Below are positions 1 to 7,496 of a DNA stretch of 11,326 nt, piece by piece; positions within the stretch are counted from its first letter, which is position 1, and each line of letters opens with the position of its first letter. Location of the stretch: assembly GCA_020833025.1 (NCBI GenBank), contig JAJHRB010000049.1:1-11326 (forward strand), written 5' to 3'. Made by a program: the position numbers and the translations under genes. The notes beneath the pieces are model-generated. The model was not told the DNA's origin. It did no database searches and saw only the letters and a program-made list of their open reading frames with translations. The DNA comes from Thermoproteaceae archaeon (GTDB lineage Archaea > Thermoproteota > Thermoprotei > Thermoproteales > Thermoproteaceae).

Positions 1-261
1 AGGCTGAACAGGGACGCGTACTTTATGGCGAAGTTCTTCCAGAGGGAGCTCGCAGTGCCAGGCATGATAGACGGCGACGCGTTCATACTGCACGGGGAGA
101 AGTCCCCGAAGGTCCTTGAGGCCGTGTACGAGCGCTTCATCAAGTACTACGTTGTGTGTCCCGTCTGCAACTCCATTGACACCGAGCTCAGGAGAGAGGG
201 CAGGATCTTCATAATGAGGTGCCTCGCCTGCGGCGCGACAACGCCGGTCAAGCCGCCGTGA
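1..261 (+). CDS. eif2b: Translation initiation factor aIF2 beta subunit, 5'-truncated by the window edge
   Basis: Frame +1 is open from base 1 ([21 protein letters not shown]...), so the ATG at 25 is internal. C-terminal zinc ribbon CPVC-x-DT-x-CLACGA and the LNRD...REL motif are typical of aIF2-beta. Confidence 0.9.
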
Positions 262-273
262 GCGCGCTAATCC

Positions 274-281
274 TTTATTAG
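274..281 (+). promoter_or_regulatory. TATA box for leaderless leuS transcript
   Basis: TTTATTAG starts 28 nt before the GTG start at 302, the spacing expected for a leaderless archaeal mRNA. Confidence 0.6.
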
Positions 282-301
282 GCCGGCACGCCCGCCGGCC
301 C

Positions 302-3139
302 GTGAGCGAGCACGCGCAGTTCTTCACCAAGCTGGCGGAGAAGTGGCAGGCGAGGTGGAGGGAGGCCGGGGTCTTCGAGCCCGAGCCGGCTCCAGGGACC
401 CCGAAGTTCTTCATAACGGCGGCGTATCCCTACCCCAACGGCGTGGTGCACATAGGCCACGGCAGGACCTACCTCATTGCCGACATACTGGCCAGGTTCC
501 ACAGGCATCTCGGCCGCGTCACGCTGTTCCCCATGGCGTTTCACTACACGGGAACTCCAATTCTAACAGTCGCCGAGGCAATCGCCGCTGGGGACGGGAG
601 GACAATAGAGGAGTACATGACGCTGTACGACGTGCCCCGCGAGGAGATAGAGAGAATGAGGGACCCGCACTACCTGGCCCGCTACTTCCACGAGCGCTCG
701 AAGCGCGCGATGGAGATGCTCGGCCTCAGCATTGACTGGTCGAGAGAGTTCACCACAATAGACCCGGAGTACCAGCGCTTCATCCAGTGGCAGTTCAAGA
801 AGCTCAGAGACGGGGGGCTGATATCCCGGGGCGCGCACCCGGTCGGCTGGTGCCCGCGCCACTCAATGCCCGTGGGGGCCCACGACACTAAGGACGACAA
901 GGAGCCCGAGATCGTGAAGTGGACGCTTATATACTTCGCCGACCGCGAGGGGCTCGCGCTCCCCGCGGCAACTCTCAGGCCCGAGACAGTGCTCGGCGTC
1001 ACGAACGTCTGGGTCAACCCGGACGCCAAGTACGTCATCGCCGAGTACAACGGGAGGGCCGTTGTCGTGAGCCGCGACGCCGCCCGCCGCCTGTCATTCC
1101 ACGGCGGCATCAAGGTACTGCGCGAGGTCCGCGGCAGCTGGATTCTGGGGCGCGAGGTGCAGAACCCCGTGACTGGCGAGTGGGTGCCTGTCTACGGGGC
1201 CAAGTTCGTGGACCCGGGAGTCGGCACGGGCGTCGTCATGTCCGTGCCCGCCCACGCGCCGTACGACTACGTTGCGCTGCGGGAGCTCGGCAGGCTCAGG
1301 CTCATCCCGCTGATACGGGTTGAGGGCTACGGAGAGTGCCCCGCGAGAGATGTCGTGGAGCGGATGGGCATAAAGAGCCAGACAGACCCGCTCCTCGAGG
1401 ATGCGACGAGGGAGGTCTACCTGGCCGAGCACAGCAGGGGCGTGGTGCGGGAGGACGTGGCAGAGCGCGTCGGCATGCACCTCGGCGAGCCAGCCCGGTC
1501 GATGCTGCGCGCCGCGTTCAGGATATTCTTCGCGGGAAGGCCGGTGAGGGGGGCGCGCGAGTTCATTGCAAGATGGCTTGTCGAGTCGGGCCTCGGCGGC
1601 GTGATGTACGACATAGCTAACAAGCCAGTGTACTGCAGGTGCGGCGCGGAGATTGTCGTCAAGGTGCTGGAAGACCAGTGGTTCATCAATTACGGGGACC
1701 GCAGGTGGAAGGAGGCCGCGCGCGAGCTCGTGAGCGGCATGACGATGGTCCCCGCCGAGGCCAGGGCGCAGATGCTCGCCACAATTGACTGGCTCGACAA
1801 GCGCGCGTGCGCCAGGACTCGCGGGCTCGGCACGCCGCTGCCGTGGGATCGGGGCTGGGTGATAGAGAGCCTTAGCGACTCCACAATCTACATGGCGTTC
1901 TACACAGTGATAAAGAAAATAAGGCGCCTCGGGCTTAGAGCCGAGCAGCTCACCGAGGAGTTCTGGGACTACGTGCTGCTCGGGCGGGGGGACGCTGAGG
2001 AGGTATCACGGAGGACAGGCGTGCCCGCGAGCGCGCTGAGGGCCGTGCGCGAGGAGTTTGAGTACTGGTACCCGCTTGACTCCAGAAATTCGGGCAAGGA
2101 CCTGGTGCCGAACCACCTGACGTTCTTCGTGCTTCACCACGCTGCAATATTCCCGAGGGACAAGTGGCCGAGGCAGATAGTCGCGAACGGCTGGGTGCTT
2201 AGAGAGGGAGAGAAGATGTCCAAGTCTAGGCGGAACGTGCTCCCGCTGGACAAGGCCGTCGAGATGTACGGCCCGGACCCCCTCAGAGCGGCGCTGGCCG
2301 TGTCTGCAGAGGTGGAGCAGGATCTCGACTTCAGGGACGCGGAGGCGAGGAGGATCGCGCAGCACCTCGCGTCAATTTACAGCCTTGCGCAGAGAGTGAT
2401 CCAGACGGCCGAGGACAGAGAGCCGGCGTGGCCTGACTACTGGCTGGTTTCAGAGATCGCGCGCGTAATCGATAGGGCTAGGGACGCGTACGAGAGGGTC
2501 AGAATTAGGCAGGCCGCCGTCGACGTGCTCTACAACGCAAAGTCCGTGTTCGAGCAGTACCTCTCGATGGTGGAGAGGCCGTCGAGGCTCGCGCTAGAGG
2601 CGCTAAGGGCGTGGATCGTGGCCATGGAGCCAATAGTCCCCCACCTGGCGGAAGAGCTCTGGGCGGCGGCCGGCGGCAGGGGCCTCGCCGCGACGGCGCC
2701 CTGGCCGGGGCTCAAGCCGGACCCCGCGGCAGTGCTGGCCAGGAGGTACGTGGACATGCTCGTGGAGGACATCAAGAGCATACCGGCGTTTAAGCGCGGC
2801 GCGAGGAGGGTCGTGATATACGTCAACCGCAATTTCTCGCTGCTCAAGGCGGCGCTGAGCGGTGGCGCGAAGTCCCTGACGGCCTCAGGCGTCAGCACGC
2901 AGGCCGCCGCCCGTCTCGCGGGACTTGCGAGGTCCCTCAGCGAGGAGGTCAAGTCGCTGGTCATGAGCGTCGAGAGCTTTGACGAGCTAGAGGTGCTGAG
3001 GTCCTACAGAGCCTACCTGGAGAGAGCTCTCGGCGCTGCCGTTGAAGTGTACGGCTCGGACGACCCGCAGGCTCCCGATCTCGGCGGCAAGAAGGCCGCG
3101 GCGCTGCCCCTCAAGCCTGGAGTTTACATTGCCTCCTGA
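302..3139 (+). CDS. leuS: Leucyl-tRNA synthetase (archaeal type)
   Basis: 945 aa. Class I HIGH motif (YPYPNGVVHIGH), KMSKS, CP1 editing motifs ATLRPET and GTGVVMSVPAHAPYD, archaeal C-terminal ALPLKPG. Confidence 0.97.
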   Translation: MSEHAQFFTKLAEKWQARWREAGVFEPEPAPGTPKFFITAAYPYPNGVVHIGHGRTYLIADILARFHRHLGRVTLFPMAFHYTGTPILTVAEAIAAGDGRTIEEYMTLYDVPREEIERMRDPHYLARYFHERSKRAMEMLGLSIDWSREFTTIDPEYQRFIQWQFKKLRDGGLISRGAHPVGWCPRHSMPVGAHDTKDDKEPEIVKWTLIYFADREGLALPAATLRPETVLGVTNVWVNPDAKYVIAEYNGRAVVVSRDAARRLSFHGGIKVLREVRGSWILGREVQNPVTGEWVPVYGAKFVDPGVGTGVVMSVPAHAPYDYVALRELGRLRLIPLIRVEGYGECPARDVVERMGIKSQTDPLLEDATREVYLAEHSRGVVREDVAERVGMHLGEPARSMLRAAFRIFFAGRPVRGAREFIARWLVESGLGGVMYDIANKPVYCRCGAEIVVKVLEDQWFINYGDRRWKEAARELVSGMTMVPAEARAQMLATIDWLDKRACARTRGLGTPLPWDRGWVIESLSDSTIYMAFYTVIKKIRRLGLRAEQLTEEFWDYVLLGRGDAEEVSRRTGVPASALRAVREEFEYWYPLDSRNSGKDLVPNHLTFFVLHHAAIFPRDKWPRQIVANGWVLREGEKMSKSRRNVLPLDKAVEMYGPDPLRAALAVSAEVEQDLDFRDAEARRIAQHLASIYSLAQRVIQTAEDREPAWPDYWLVSEIARVIDRARDAYERVRIRQAAVDVLYNAKSVFEQYLSMVERPSRLALEALRAWIVAMEPIVPHLAEELWAAAGGRGLAATAPWPGLKPDPAAVLARRYVDMLVEDIKSIPAFKRGARRVVIYVNRNFSLLKAALSGGAKSLTASGVSTQAAARLAGLARSLSEEVKSLVMSVESFDELEVLRSYRAYLERALGAAVEVYGSDDPQAPDLGGKKAAALPLKPGVYIAS

Positions 3140-3148
3140 CAGCCGAGG

Positions 3149-6100
3149 TCAGGACTGGGGCGGCGCTAGCCGCGGCAGCACTTTCTCTGAAAACTCGCCG
3201 AAGAGCTCGCTCAGGGCGCGCTCGTAGCCGAGCCTCCCTGCCTCCACGGCGTCCATGTACTGCTCGACTACTCTCGTCCTCTCCTCGCTTATCAAGTCGC
3301 CGAAGCTCTCCTCCAGGAAGCGGTAGACCTCTATCCCGCGCCTCGTCGGCACCATTAGCCTCCTGCGCCCGGCGACGTAGACATAGTACCTCCTCGCCAG
3401 CACCTGGAGAATTCTGGCGTACGTGCTGGGCCTGCCTATGCCTCTCTGCCTCATCAGCGCGAGTACCTCCGCCTGTGACAGCAAGCGCCTGACCTTGCGG
3501 CACCTCCTCACCGCCGCGCTCAGCGTGCCGGTGGGAAGCTCGGGCTCGACGCGCGTGACGCGGTACACGGCCTGAAAGCCCTGCTGCTTCACGCCGACAG
3601 CCCTCTCGACCTCCACAACCGCGCCGCCTGCCTCGATTGCATACCTGGCGATCTCAACCACGCCGGGCTCCATCTGGCTGGCCATGAAGCGCCTGAAGAT
3701 AAGGTCGTAGAGCCTGTAGTGGTCTCTCGCGAGGCGTATTGCCAGCTGCAGGGCGCCCGCGCTGACGAGCCCGCGGAGCTCGTCCACATCGAGAGGCCTC
3801 GTCGGCCTTATGGCCTCGTGCGCCCCCTCTGACTCCTCCCCCCACGCTCTCGGCCTGAACGCCGACTCGCCGAACTTTCTCACTATGTACTCCCTGGCAA
3901 TGGATATGCCCGCCGTGGAGACTCTCTTGCTGTCCGTCCTGTGATACGTTATCAGGCCGCTCTCGAAGAGGTCCTGCGCCACTCTCATGGCATGCTCTGC
4001 CGACATTCCGAGCCTCTCCACGGCATCTCTCAGCATCTCGTCCGTCGTGTAGGGCGGCGGCGGGTTTATGACTCTCTCTGACCTCTCCACGAGCCTTATG
4101 GTGACCTGCCTGCTCCTCCTCAGCGCGACGGCGGCCGCCTCCGGGACGCGCAGTCTCAGCACGCTGCCGTCCACCTCGAGCTCGACGCTGTACACAGCAT
4201 TCTTGCGCGACTCCTCGTAGCTCCTCACTATCCAGCCCAGCACTGGCGTCTGCACCCTGCCCGCGGATAGGTTCGGGCTGCCGTACCTTGTCTGCAGTAT
4301 CTTGCTCAGGCCGAAGCCCAGCCACCTGTCCTCGAGCCTCCTCACTATCTGGGCCTCGGCGAGCGAGTAGCTGACTGACCTCGGGCTGGACAGCGCCTTG
4401 AGTATTGCCCTCCTCGTGACTTCGTGGAATTCTATTCTCTCCACGCTAGAGGCGTAAGGCCGGAGGGCTAGGTAGAGGTCGAAGGCTATCTTCTCCCCCT
4501 CGGAGTCGGGATCCGTGCCTATCAGCACCCTGTCCACCTCAGCCGCAACGTCCCTGAGTATGGATATCACATCGAGGGGCCTGCAGCCGGGCGGCACGTC
4601 GGCATCGTCGACATAAGCGCCGCCCCTGCACCTCCATATTTTGTTGTAGACAGGCACGAAGTCGCCGCCCCTGACCGGCACCGCGTACTCCTCGGCGTCG
4701 TAGCCGTCGTGCCTGAATGTGCCGAACCACTTTAAGAGCGTCTCGCGCTCGCCGGGGTCCACCTTCCTCAGCGAGGTGGGCAGCTCGTAAACGTGGCCGA
4801 GCGACGCCACTATTATGAGCACGGCGCTGCCAGTCGAGACCTCGTATGCCGGCAGGCCCCCCACGAGCAGCACGCTGGGCCTGCCGAAAAACCGCGCGAT
4901 TGTCCTCGCCTTGGTCGGCGACTCGACCACAACCAATACCGTCTTCATGAGGTCGGCGCCGGCCTCCGCCGTCACCCTGCCCGACACTAGGTCGCGTATC
5001 AGTCTTCTGTCCCTGTCCACCTCGCTCAGAATGGCGTCGAGGTCGACCTCGCCGATATGCCTGAACTCCGCCTCCTCGAACCTCAGCTTGAGCTCCCTCT
5101 GGAGCGCGCGGAATGCCTTCCAGTCGTCGACCAGCGCAATGCTGAGCCCCTTGGAGAGCCCGCCGGCGTAGAGCCTTGACGTGCGCCCGCTGCCCTGCAC
5201 GTACGTCGTCACGTCGGGCACGAGCACGTAGAGCTCGCCGTCTATCACGGCGAGCCTGACCTCTGCCGATGTCTCAATTGCCCTCCTGACGTCCTCGCTC
5301 TTGAGCAGCTCCCCCGCGAACTCGACGGCAGACCTCGCGACGCTCACGGCGTGTCTCTCGAACTCCGTGAGCCCGGCGCCCTCAACGGCCTTCTTAACGG
5401 CCTCTTGGACGCTCCGGGCGTACGGCGCTAGCCTCCTCAGCTGCCCAATCAGCCTGTCCGCCCTCAGCTTCGCATCCCCCGAGAGAGCCTGCCTGACGTT
5501 GTAGAGGAACGTGAGGTATGCGTGCACGGAGAACTCCTCGAGCCTCACCCTGAACTTGTACTTCGGGATCCCGACGAACACGACATACCTTATCACGTGC
5601 GGGAGGTCTAGCCCCCTGACAAGCGCCGATCTGGCAGACGCCATGCCGACGAGTATCGAGAGCTCGCCCCTCTCGAACTGCTCCAGCACCCTGCGCCTCG
5701 GCCTGAAGAGGTGCTCGGCCGGTATGCCCTCCTCCCTCGCCCTGACCACTATCCTCTCGCCCAGCTCTCTGTCCTGCACGTAAATTATCCCCCCGGGGCC
5801 CAGCCTCCTCACGAGCTGCACCACCTGCGCGACGGCGTCGCTTGACATCTCAACGTATAGATCGGCGACGTTGCGGAGCCCCTCGGCCCTGCCGCCCACG
5901 TCAAATCCCAGGATCTCCCTGAATAGCAGCAGTTTGGCAGTCCGCCGGGCCTTGGCGAGAGCGCCCGATGCCACGAAGGTGCCGATCTTCAGCTCGTCCA
6001 CCCGCCGCCTCAGCGCGTCCCTCATGCTGTCGATCTCGCGCTCTATGCGCTCCGCGTCCTCGGCCCTGCCGGCAATCTCGGCCTCACGCAGCCGCCTCAG

Positions 6101-6841
6101 CCTGTCTATCAGCTCCGCGGCGGCCCTCAGCACCTCGTCGTCAACGCCGAGAAGCTTCAGAATTCTGTCGACGTTCTTGCTCGTTGCCCTGAGAATGCTG
6201 TCGACGTCATCGGCGGCCACGAAGCCGAATTTGTGCCGGCTTAGCAAGTCAAAGCGGCGGGACAGGAGCGCCGAGGTCACGATCAGCACGTCAAAGTCCC
6301 CCCGCTCTACGGCCTCGAGGGCCTCCCTCCTCTCCCTCTCCGTCAGCATGGAGTGGTAGGCAATTGCCCTCACGCGGACGCTTGCCCTCTCGGCGTAGGC
6401 GAGCAGGCGCTTGTGCGCCTGGTGGGCGAGGGCCGACGTCGGGAACACCAGCAGCGTCTTGCGCCACTGCCGCGCGGCGTAGATCGCCGCGACGAGGAGG
6501 AATGTCGTCTTGCCGGATCCGGTCGGCGCGACTATTGCGAAGCTCCTCCCCCTAACGAAGCGCCTGGCCCAGAGTCTCTGGGCTCCCCACATCTCGCAGC
6601 CCACGGCGGACTTGAAGAGAGACGAGAACTCCTCGTACCTCTCGAGATACTCGGCGATCCGGGCGAGGCCCCTGAGCCTCCCGCGCTCCCTCAGCAAGCT
6701 CACGAGCTCTCTCATGGACTTGGCCCCGAGACCCTCTGGAAGGCACTCGTAACAGGGAAGGCCGGCTGCCAGCCTGTCCGACGTGATGGGGCCCCCGCAG
6801 TTGGGGCAGCTGTGCAGATACACGACGGGCGGCGGCCTCAC
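3149..6841 (-). CDS. rgy: Reverse gyrase
   Basis: 1230 aa. N-terminal Zn finger CPNC..CYEC, Walker A APTGSGKT, DDVD, QGSGRTSR helicase motif VI, Toprim VESPTKARTI and TDPDSEGEKI, catalytic GLITYHRTDS, GIGRPSTY. Confidence 0.97.
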   Translation of the reverse strand: MRPPPVVYLHSCPNCGGPITSDRLAAGLPCYECLPEGLGAKSMRELVSLLRERGRLRGLARIAEYLERYEEFSSLFKSAVGCEMWGAQRLWARRFVRGRSFAIVAPTGSGKTTFLLVAAIYAARQWRKTLLVFPTSALAHQAHKRLLAYAERASVRVRAIAYHSMLTERERREALEAVERGDFDVLIVTSALLSRRFDLLSRHKFGFVAADDVDSILRATSKNVDRILKLLGVDDEVLRAAAELIDRLRRLREAEIAGRAEDAERIEREIDSMRDALRRRVDELKIGTFVASGALAKARRTAKLLLFREILGFDVGGRAEGLRNVADLYVEMSSDAVAQVVQLVRRLGPGGIIYVQDRELGERIVVRAREEGIPAEHLFRPRRRVLEQFERGELSILVGMASARSALVRGLDLPHVIRYVVFVGIPKYKFRVRLEEFSVHAYLTFLYNVRQALSGDAKLRADRLIGQLRRLAPYARSVQEAVKKAVEGAGLTEFERHAVSVARSAVEFAGELLKSEDVRRAIETSAEVRLAVIDGELYVLVPDVTTYVQGSGRTSRLYAGGLSKGLSIALVDDWKAFRALQRELKLRFEEAEFRHIGEVDLDAILSEVDRDRRLIRDLVSGRVTAEAGADLMKTVLVVVESPTKARTIARFFGRPSVLLVGGLPAYEVSTGSAVLIIVASLGHVYELPTSLRKVDPGERETLLKWFGTFRHDGYDAEEYAVPVRGGDFVPVYNKIWRCRGGAYVDDADVPPGCRPLDVISILRDVAAEVDRVLIGTDPDSEGEKIAFDLYLALRPYASSVERIEFHEVTRRAILKALSSPRSVSYSLAEAQIVRRLEDRWLGFGLSKILQTRYGSPNLSAGRVQTPVLGWIVRSYEESRKNAVYSVELEVDGSVLRLRVPEAAAVALRRSRQVTIRLVERSERVINPPPPYTTDEMLRDAVERLGMSAEHAMRVAQDLFESGLITYHRTDSKRVSTAGISIAREYIVRKFGESAFRPRAWGEESEGAHEAIRPTRPLDVDELRGLVSAGALQLAIRLARDHYRLYDLIFRRFMASQMEPGVVEIARYAIEAGGAVVEVERAVGVKQQGFQAVYRVTRVEPELPTGTLSAAVRRCRKVRRLLSQAEVLALMRQRGIGRPSTYARILQVLARRYYVYVAGRRRLMVPTRRGIEVYRFLEESFGDLISEERTRVVEQYMDAVEAGRLGYERALSELFGEFSEKVLPRLAPPQS

Positions 6842-6859
6842 GCGGTGCAGAGGCGCCGG

Positions 6860-6867
6860 CTATAAAA
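6860..6867 (-). promoter_or_regulatory. TATA box for rgy (probably leaderless)
   Basis: TTTTATAG on the minus strand, first T 26 nt upstream of the GTG at 6841. Confidence 0.6.
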
Positions 6868-7124
6868 GCCCTAGGCTCACTGCCGGTCGCCCGTGCGGGA
6901 GCCTTTCAGCCCCTTTTAAAGCTCCGGGCCCTCCTGGTTACTCTCCCACGCTTTCTAGCAATCCCTGCTGCGGCTTGCAGGCTCCCGCGGCGCGCCCTCG
7001 ACAGTTACGGGCGCGCGCCTCTGCGATTCGCGCGGGCCCCGCCGGCGTGGCATTAGTGCAGCTGGGCAGCATCCGGTGCCGTGACTGGTCTGGCACGACT
7101 GGCAGGGACAACTGTGCCGAGCTG

Positions 7125-7129
7125 AAAAG
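7125..7129 (-). terminator. Oligo-T terminator after the tRNA-Ile2 half
   Basis: CTTTT directly follows the encoded CCA on the minus strand. Confidence 0.45.
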
Positions 7130-7194
7130 TGGTGGGCCCGCCGGGATTTTTGGGCGGGGCCATCCCCCGAACCCGGGTCCACCCGGTTATGAGC
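7130..7194 (-). tRNA. 3' half (positions 31-76) of tRNA-Ile2(CAU), with a 19-nt intron at 56/57 (7168-7150); candidate split tRNA fragment
   Basis: Minus strand reads G CTCATAA CCGGG TGGAC CCGGG TTC [GGGGGATGGCCCCGCCCAA] AAAT CCCGG CGGGCCC A CCA, giving a perfect T-arm, acceptor 3' strand and encoded CCA. No D-arm or 5' acceptor strand lies upstream. Ile2 rather than Met is inferred from the GGCTCATAACC anticodon arm and the GGGCCC-type acceptor. Confidence 0.88.
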
Positions 7195-7238
7195 CACGCC
7201 GCAGGCGGCGGCCGGTCCCGGCTCACTGTCTCTCCCCT

Positions 7239-7252
7239 CTATTTAAGCCTTT
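7239..7252 (-). promoter_or_regulatory. BRE-TATA promoter of the tRNA-Ile2 3' half
   Basis: AAAGGCTTAAATAG. Predicted start ~7216-7219, leaving a ~22-25 nt leader before G31. Confidence 0.75.
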
Positions 7253-7270
7253 GCTGCGCGGCGCCTGCCG

Positions 7271-7284
7271 GAACGCTTAAATAA
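7271..7284 (+). promoter_or_regulatory. BRE-TATA promoter of the tRNA-Arg 3' half
   Basis: GAACGCTTAAATAA. Predicted start ~7307-7309, leaving a ~19-21 nt leader before C31. Confidence 0.75.
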
Positions 7285-7327
7285 TCGCGCGCGGGTTGCG
7301 GCAATCCCGCGGGCGCGAGCCGCCGAG

Positions 7328-7391
7328 CCTTCTAAGCCGTAGGCCGGGGCGCGGGCGGACGTCGTGGGTTCGAATCCCACCGGGCCCGCCA
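7328..7391 (+). tRNA. 3' half (positions 31-76) of tRNA-Arg(UCU), with an 18-nt intron at 45/46 (7343-7360); candidate split tRNA fragment
   Basis: C CTTCTAA GCCGT AG [GCCGGGGCGCGGGCGGAC] GTC GTGGG TTCGAAT CCCAC CGGGCCC G CCA, giving a perfect T-arm, acceptor 3' strand and CCA. No D-arm or 5' acceptor strand lies between the promoter and the anticodon loop. Confidence 0.88.
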
Positions 7392-7392
7392 A

Positions 7393-7480
7393 GCCTCAGC
7401 TGTTGCCGCGACATATCACTCGTGAGTTAAGGAGGGGCGGGCTCTCCTCACGCCCTCAGTGGTACTCCGGCTCTTCACCG
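7393..7480 (-). ncRNA. Box C/D guide sRNA candidate (three C-guide-D units)
   Basis: Minus strand: GTGAAGA - 12 nt - CTGA - GGGC - GTGAGGA - 13 nt - CTTA - 8 nt - GTGATAT - 13 nt - CTGA. Box-to-box spacing matches archaeal C/D RNAs. Confidence 0.6.
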
Positions 7481-7496
7481 CTCCGATCAATCCCCG

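Follow-up and report, generated by a model that had tools for sequence, protein, structure and literature searches.

What becomes of a transfer RNA (tRNA) gene when a contig holds only its 3' half? Contig C13 (JAJHRB010000049.1) of the Thermoproteaceae archaeon assembly GCA_020833025.1, which is 11,326 nucleotides (nt) long and was analysed in its entirety as the window, raises this question twice: positions 7130-7391 carry two divergent tRNA 3' halves, that of tRNA-Ile2(CAU) on the minus strand and that of tRNA-Arg(UCU) on the plus strand. The genome (G000; 1.56 Mb in 126 contigs, 62.6% G+C, an estimated 94% complete, zero contamination) is grouped by the database taxonomy with 17 other genomes in one genus. 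We located a fitting 5' half for each of the two elsewhere in the genome and conclude that they are very probably bona fide split, trans-spliced tRNA genes in an archaeon of the Pyrobaculum lineage.

Neither ARAGORN nor Rfam at gathering thresholds calls a tRNA in the window; at a relaxed threshold Rfam returns a weak partial tRNA match, to the T-arm, at 7347-7388. The 3' halves were found by numbering by hand and by a T-arm scan. The Ile2 half (minus strand) starts with an exon of nt 31-56 (7194-7169) that holds G31, the anticodon loop with CAU, the 3' strand of the anticodon stem, the variable loop, the 5' strand of the T-stem and the first three bases of the T-loop. A cis intron of 19 nt at 56/57 (7168-7150) then interrupts the T-loop, and the last exon, nt 57-76 (7149-7130), brings the rest of this loop, the 3' strand of the T-stem, the acceptor strand CGGGCCC, A73 and CCA (7132-7130). 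The intron forms a miniature bulge-helix-bulge (BHB) motif with a central helix of 4 base pairs (bp), 3-nt bulges and a 4-bp inner hairpin, and its family is present in many T-loops across the genome. In the Arg half (plus strand), C31, the anticodon loop with UCU, the 3' strand of the anticodon stem, A44 and G45 make up the first exon (nt 31-45, 7328-7342). An 18-nt cis intron, again a miniature BHB, lies in the variable loop at 45/46 (7343-7360), and the last exon (nt 46-76, 7361-7391) contains the T-arm, the acceptor strand CGGGCCC, G73 and CCA (7389-7391). Without the intron the variable loop reads AGGTC as in all relatives. A scan for GGGCCCG found a 5' acceptor strand with D-arm nowhere on contig C13; the sequence downstream of the halves was read as well, and a permuted tRNA gene is ruled out.

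Each half appears to have a promoter of its own. The TATA box of the Ile2 half, CTTAAATA, is at 7240..7247 on the minus strand (TTAAATA at 7246-7240; promoter-box repeat family D1), and that of the Arg half, TTAAATAA, at 7277..7284 on the plus strand (TTAAATA at 7277-7283; inverted repeat I4); the two boxes form an inverted repeat and are 29 bp apart. The leader begins to pair with its partner 24 nt after the box in Ile2 and 21 nt after it in Arg, the norm of this genome being 20-23 nt (n = 31 ordinary tRNA 5' ends). The leaders are about 22 nt long, with 5' ends predicted from promoter spacing only. That of Ile2 would span ~7217-7195 on the minus strand (inner-helix strand 7215-7201, central GGCG 7200-7197, bulge TG 7196-7195) and that of Arg ~7305-7327 on the plus strand (inner-helix strand 7305-7321, central GCCG 7322-7325, bulge AG 7326-7327). 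An earlier note on this DNA had placed both halves at the coordinates given here, had assigned a promoter to each and had seen neither a D-arm nor a 5' acceptor strand in them, and our analysis agrees on all of this, with promoter spacings close to the usual ones. It had also taken both T-arms to be intact, which is wrong for Ile2 with its interrupted T-loop, and it had overlooked the cis introns, namely the two described above and a third in the Ile2 5' half.

Where are the missing parts? We scanned the genome for GGGCCCG and then for U8 and a D-arm. The scan turned up a set of promoter-bearing 5' pieces that end at about nt 30, two of which fit the halves of the window. The Arg 5' half (nt 1-30) is located at C89:28993-28962 on the minus strand, with a TATA box before it and its trailer starting at C89:28961; all of its 32 bases are identical to the 5' part of tRNA-Arg(UCU) of cultured relatives. 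The Ile2 5' half, which is Ile-type and also has a TATA box, lies on the plus strand and is itself interrupted: nt 1-29 (C100:10465-10494) are followed by a 19-nt cis intron at 29/30 (C100:10495-10513), the one-nucleotide exon G30 (C100:10514) and the trailer from C100:10515. The four pieces are thus found at separate loci, the 3' halves on C13 and the 5' halves on C89 and C100, all of them inside contigs, and the TATA-like box before each piece is its putative promoter.

When trailer and leader are annealed, a central helix of 4 bp is framed in both pairs by two bulges of 3 nt each, with an outer helix of 3 bp on one side and a long inner helix on the other; in the Ile2 pair this takes place only once the 29/30 intron is gone. 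In the Arg pair, nt 25-28 (CGGC) match 7322-7325 (GCCG) at 4/4 positions, the two bulges read GG|G and AG|C, the outer helix consists of nt 32-34 with nt 24-22, and the trailer, after one bulged base, forms 16-17 bp with 7321-7305, including one tandem G.A/A.G. The Ile2 pair was examined with the 29/30 intron removed: nt 25-28 (CGCC) match 7200-7197 (GGCG), again at 4/4 positions, the bulges are CG|T and TG|G, and the trailer forms 15 bp with 7215-7201, with one mismatch and one wobble. Our rule for BHB motifs was calibrated on the canonical Ala(CGC) intron of the same genome (4-bp central helix, cut after the second base of each 3-nt bulge), and all five motifs, among them those of the cis introns at 45/46, 56/57 and 29/30, pass this formal check. 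Two other ways of joining the Ile2 halves are ruled out: at a 29/30 trans junction no central helix forms, and a 30/31 cut without prior cis-splicing would set A30 opposite C40.

Much of this geometry had been anticipated from the window. The earlier note had expected separate 5' halves starting with GGGCCCG and carrying complementary trailers, and both exist. The leader ends that it proposed, GGCG-TG and GCCG-AG, their pairing with nt 25-28 and the helix of nt 32-34 with nt 24-22 hold against the actual 5' halves, and its 30/31 junction gives a canonical BHB in both pairs. The trailer word predicted for Arg is matched except for the tandem G.A/A.G pair. For Ile2, the predicted trailer does form a 15-nt pairing with a single mismatch once the 29/30 intron, which is invisible from the window, has been taken out, and not before.

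Could such complementarity arise by chance? A blastn-short search with the leaders against this GC-rich genome returned nothing but noise (10-14-mers), and loose complementarity to the leaders is frequent, with 111 and 39 sites when as many mismatches are allowed as the real partners show. We therefore tested the register instead: six orphan 5' halves were combined with six orphan 3' halves, and pairs in the central and inner helices were scored. The Arg pair reached 4/4 in the central and 13/15 in the inner helix and the Ile2 pair 4/4 and 14/15, while non-cognate combinations involving Arg or Ile2 halves scored 9/15 at most. We regard chance as excluded because the condition is a joint one, namely a complementary trailer in register behind nt 30, in a 5' half that is an orphan, has a promoter and carries the matching acceptor.

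What would splicing yield? Joined in silico, the exons give products of 78 nt (Arg) and 77 nt (Ile2) that fold into perfect cloverleafs and are called Arg(tct) and Met/Ile2(cat) by ARAGORN. Their identity to the contiguous orthologues in cultured Pyrobaculum is ~96%, at 73/76 for Arg and 71/74 for Ile2 with the relative G012. The CAU product agrees with the genome's own Ile(GAU) at 70/75 positions and with its elongator Met at 64/75; it has the acceptor, D-arm and anticodon stem of Pyrobaculum Ile2-type genes and is distinct from the initiator (A1-U72; C35/C54) and from the elongator Met (C89:48692). Three genes with the anticodon CAT are present in the assembly (initiator, elongator Met and split Ile2) and one with TCT, and an intact gene for Ile2(CAU) or Arg(UCU) was found nowhere in the 94%-complete assembly. 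The two products would be the cell's only tRNA-Arg(UCU) and its only AUA-decoding tRNA-Ile2. Both codons are in use: in the window's three large genes Ile is encoded most often by AUA (63/121), and AGA occurs 39 times. The tRNA-Ile2 class has a CAU anticodon, decodes AUA and is modified by TiaS; its hallmarks also include agmatidine in place of C34 and charging with isoleucine. A gene for TiaS is present (TiaS_FLD match of 89 bits, C44), as are genes for the catalytic endonuclease subunit EndA, with both Pfam domains, and for RtcB (C60:4614-7331, plus strand), whose open reading frame (ORF) of 961 amino acids shows a Pfam match interrupted by ~450 amino acids, the size of an intein.

Based on these findings we propose the following course of events. 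A TATA promoter of its own would drive each 3' half, giving a transcript of a short leader and tRNA nt 31-76, and each 5' half would be transcribed elsewhere as nt 1-30 plus trailer (Arg on C89, Ile2 on C100). Trailer and leader would anneal over 15-17 bp and set nt 25-28 against the last four paired bases of the leader, creating a helix-bulge-helix-bulge-helix motif whose 3-nt bulges contain the 30/31 boundary. The splicing endonuclease would then cut both bulges and RtcB would ligate nt 30 and nt 31, and the same enzymes would take out the small cis introns (Arg 45/46, Ile2 56/57). The Ile2 5' half would lose its 29/30 intron first, as only then could C29 and G30 become adjacent and the 30/31 motif form. 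Splicing of Ile2 is predicted to be ordered in this way, cis before trans, because the two motifs overlap (nt 24-27 for 29/30, nt 25-28 for 30/31) and because the 5' bulge of the 30/31 motif needs C29 beside G30.

How did this arrangement arise? In all ~60 Thermoproteales genomes searched tRNA-Arg(UCU) is contiguous. The relatives G007 and G016 and three metagenome-assembled genomes of Thermoproteaceae have a short cis intron exactly at 30/31 of this gene, with the same CGGC/GCCG central helix as here. The Ile2-type gene is likewise contiguous in all relatives; its 29/30 intron occurs throughout Pyrobaculum, and the central helix of this intron is GCGC/GCGC in the cis-spliced Pyrobaculum orthologues as it is here. 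Exon sequences, intron positions and central helices are thus alike between our genes and the cis-spliced orthologues (Arg 30/31, Ile2 29/30). However, the latter are contiguous, whereas here the 30/31 intervening sequence is cut and each arm of its hairpin would be in a different transcript. Patterns of the anticodon arm were needed for these comparisons, as the 281-bp region used as DNA query in the relatives retrieved conserved T-arms only. In metagenomes, a scan with the exact 25-mer of the Arg leader junction gave zero matches, and one with a promoter-gap-anticodon pattern gave unrelated matches only, mostly from gut metagenomes. Relative to the contiguous, intron-bearing orthologues, the split state is derived.

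The genome itself offers further points of comparison. Its elongator Met gene (C89:48692-48850, plus strand) has cis introns at 29/30 and 30/31 around the one-nucleotide exon G30 and in addition a T-loop intron. It has A26 in place of G26, with compensating changes opposite this base in both central helices. For the split Ile2, this gene is the counterpart in cis. In the Arg case, the genome's own Arg(GCG) has a 40-nt cis intron at 30/31 to whose two arms trailer and leader are homologous; the leader corresponds to the 3' part of this intron. On C100, the Ile2 5' half is preceded by an ATP-synthase-type gene and its neighbour, and in G016, G015, G005 and G002 these two genes stand upstream of the contiguous Ile2 gene. 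In the window, the Ile2 3' half is followed by a reverse gyrase gene, as is Ile2 in G016 and G007. Because the flanking synteny is divided between C100 and the window, the ancestral Ile2 locus was broken inside the gene, at the 30/31 intervening sequence. At the Arg locus a synteny signal relative to the relatives was not found; the Arg 5' half adjoins genes that flank the elongator Met in relatives. A single inversion between two tRNA genes, as a source of the divergent pair, predicts convergent 5' halves at one locus and is ruled out by their position on different contigs beside unrelated genes.

Are Arg(UCU) and Ile2(CAU) the only split tRNAs of this genome? Further orphan halves with matching trailers and leaders were detected for Trp, Asn, Lys(UUU), Thr(UGU), Thr(CGU), Leu(UAG), Leu(CAG) and Leu(GAG). 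The candidate pieces of Trp, Asn, Lys(UUU) and Thr are located at C46:7391(-), C28:19283(-), C20:13302(-), C74:5818(+), C81:627(+), C81:473(-), C34:9003(+), C88:12952(+) and C91:17004(+). Most of these candidates are cut at 30/31 or 29/30; both halves of the Lys(UUU) candidate are on C81 and divergent, and the two Thr candidates appear to have one 5' half in common. The candidate Leu genes appear to be split in the D-arm region (C89:44350(+), C89:48541(+), C89:55050(-), C89:53522(-), C102:3207(+) and C34:22761(+)), and the 5' piece at C89:55050 fits the near-identical leaders of Leu(CAG) and Leu(GAG). On balance we lean towards the view that this is the most fragmented tRNA gene set known, with some ten or more trans-spliced tRNAs: Arg(UCU), Ile2, Trp, Asn, Lys(UUU), two Thr with a common 5' half, and three or four Leu, some of them with a common 5' piece. 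They may have come about once the lineage had diverged from cultured Pyrobaculum, through breaks of the chromosome within 29/30 and 30/31 introns. If this is true, Ile2 would need an obligatory cis-then-trans order around a one-nucleotide exon, and the Leu cases would be the first split class II tRNAs; a review of 2015 knew of none (PMC4390854). In Lys(CUU) (C31:372(-) and 93(-)) and Thr(GGU) (C74:17519(+) and 17784(+)) the 5' and 3' parts are 250-280 nt apart on the same strand, which points either to introns of unusual length or to split halves that lie side by side, as in the Aeropyrum type.

Several points weigh against two trans-spliced tRNA genes. The case is built on DNA sequence, from which transcription, cleavage, ligation and the order of events are deduced. 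With 126 contigs and ~94% completeness, an intact copy could lie in the missing part. The split occurs in none of the relatives, so there is no cross-species covariation of trailer and leader. Complementarity by itself is not rare in a GC-rich genome, and the case leans on register and context. Finally, the structural beta subunit of the endonuclease, which is typical of Crenarchaeota, was not located in the genome. The incompleteness of the assembly, together with the wealth of dispersed repeats and rearranged tRNA loci in this genome, would also suit an explanation in which the fragments are dead relics of rearranged tRNA genes and functional intact copies lie in the unassembled 6%. Yet in all halves promoters remain correctly spaced, exons flawless and boundaries able to form a BHB, and the flanks complement each other; the design recurs in about ten further tRNAs of the genome, and decay would not preserve in-register complementarity. 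The earlier note had considered that intact Ile2 and Arg copies and a lack of complementary 5' halves would tell against split genes. What we find is the reverse: the partners are present, and neither intact gene nor any second copy is present in the assembly. Relics are therefore an improbable explanation.

An artefact of assembly or binning, that is, chimeric contigs or halves from different strains, might be suspected in a metagenome-type assembly, all the more as an alternative contig exists: a contig of ENA ERZ27247216 tracks the window from its right end to 7664, the edge of a 164-bp repeat, and then diverges. However, this breakpoint is outside the feature, and another contig of the same independent assembly, 99.93% identical to window positions 149-7693, is identical over 7130-7391, within which the earlier note had allowed for a misassembly at 7195-7327. 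Both 5' half loci are also reproduced in other assemblies. That of Arg (111 nt) is identical in three, JGI 3300045883, Logan SRR10916987 and ENA ERZ27247216, and that of Ile2 (136 nt) in one, Logan SRR25522540; none of the halves lies at a contig end. We thus regard an artefact as highly improbable. Partial duplication of tRNAs at the attachment sites of integrated mobile elements has a precedent in the same genome, where Ser(GCU) and Ser(CGA) each have, besides the intact gene, a second copy of their 3' part at a distance of 10.8 and 10.4 kb, respectively (C12:552 and 11372; C17:10521 and 96), the pattern of integrated elements bounded by attachment sites. A 17-nt direct repeat with one mismatch (7028-7044 and 7564-7580) also flanks the two halves of the window, and its 14-nt core has three exact occurrences in the genome. 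Such a duplication would, however, copy an intact gene that is still present, and the assembly holds no such gene for Arg(UCU) or Ile2. The fragments moreover have promoters, and their leaders are ready for BHB formation with 5' halves located far away; the window ORFs tested gave no integrase domain, and the Ser duplications look different from the split halves. To attachment-site duplication we assign only the slightest probability.

The contig join right of ~7693 is uncertain or polymorphic, and it is outside the region of the tRNA halves. The repeat mentioned above (7664-7827, ~164 bp) is dispersed, with at least 10 copies on other contigs at 70-88% identity, and its edge coincides with the divergence point at 7664. 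With its TATA-like box, hairpins and T-runs it could represent either a family of small RNA genes or a miniature mobile element. Another family of dispersed repeats is found at L221:1-343, C89:55420-55650 and on C40, C55 and C39, with one copy ~370 nt upstream of the common Leu 5' piece. Copies of the two families lie within 700 nt of tRNA pieces in 3/14 and 2/12 cases, with 4.7% expected; this signal is mild and our case makes no use of it. The family of boxes found before the two tRNA halves has a third promoter-like member at 7634-7646 on the minus strand, and downstream of it, at 7497-7395 on the same strand, there is a weak, sub-threshold resemblance to the archaeal C/D box small RNAs sR41, sR2 and sR14.

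Did tRNAs begin as two halves, or were they split late? Split tRNA genes have a central place in this debate, and to our knowledge they have been reported from no more than about seven archaeal genomes. If Arg(UCU) and Ile2(CAU) are split genes, they provide unusually direct evidence for a late origin, as the sister species have contiguous genes, some of them with cis introns at the very same positions. A late origin is also backed by the paralogue in the same genome that has both introns in cis, by the homology of the Arg flanks to the cis intron of Arg(GCG) and by the synteny of the Ile2 locus. The two genes would extend split tRNAs to essential single-copy decoders (AUA, AGA), to Pyrobaculum as an experimentally tractable genus and to a nested design in which a cis intron is removed before the trans junction forms. 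Both escape standard tRNA finders, so annotation would falsely report missing tRNAs.

How does this compare with known systems? The published lists (PMC4390854, PMC4033280, PMC3218864) comprise initiator Met, His, Lys, Gln and two Glu in Nanoarchaeum equitans, three Gly, Glu and two Ala in Caldivirga maquilingensis, and Asp and Lys in four Desulfurococcales. A full-text literature search found no later report of a split Arg or Ile2 or of a split tRNA in Pyrobaculum or Thermoproteaceae. Split Ile2(CAU) and Arg(UCU) genes, which the earlier note did not recall, are indeed missing from these lists (PMC4390854, PMC4033280). Pyrobaculum and Thermoproteaceae are likewise absent from the published lists. 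Its term of a new system, however, was too strong, as the mechanism is the known BHB trans-splicing. New are the isoacceptors Arg(UCU) and Ile2(CAU) and the genus Pyrobaculum; split tRNA genes as such were already known.

The closest parallel is offered by C. maquilingensis (Fujishima et al. 2009; PMC4390854, PMC4033280), which has the order Thermoproteales and a free-living hyperthermophile lineage in common with our archaeon. In both, each piece has its own promoter, complementary flanks form the BHB, related tRNAs have cis introns at the same position to which these flanks are homologous, and some pieces are common to isoacceptors. Family and genus differ, and it is Gly, Glu and Ala that are split in Caldivirga instead of Arg(UCU) and Ile2(CAU). 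Unlike there, the junction here is at 30/31, the halves contain extra cis introns, one of which abuts the junction via a one-nucleotide exon, and the two 3' halves have a common divergent promoter region. N. equitans (Randau et al. 2005; PMC3491384) also transcribes its halves separately and joins them via a leader/trailer helix and a BHB, and the enzyme that cuts them there is a heteromeric endonuclease. Its genome, however, is that of a parasite and is reduced, the junctions are mostly at 37/38 and the tRNAs are initiator Met, His, Lys, Gln and Glu. Moreover, trans-splicing in N. equitans has been proven experimentally, with support from RNA sequencing (PMC3491384), whereas our evidence is genomic. 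With Asp(GUC) and Lys(CUU) of the Desulfurococcales (Chan, Cozen and Lowe 2011, PMC3218864) our genes share that the splits are lineage-specific and recent, with contiguous genes in relatives; there, too, they are read as derived from intron-containing genes (PMC3218864). In contrast, each Desulfurococcales genome has one split tRNA while we count ~10 candidates here, and synteny here directly shows an ancestral locus broken in two.

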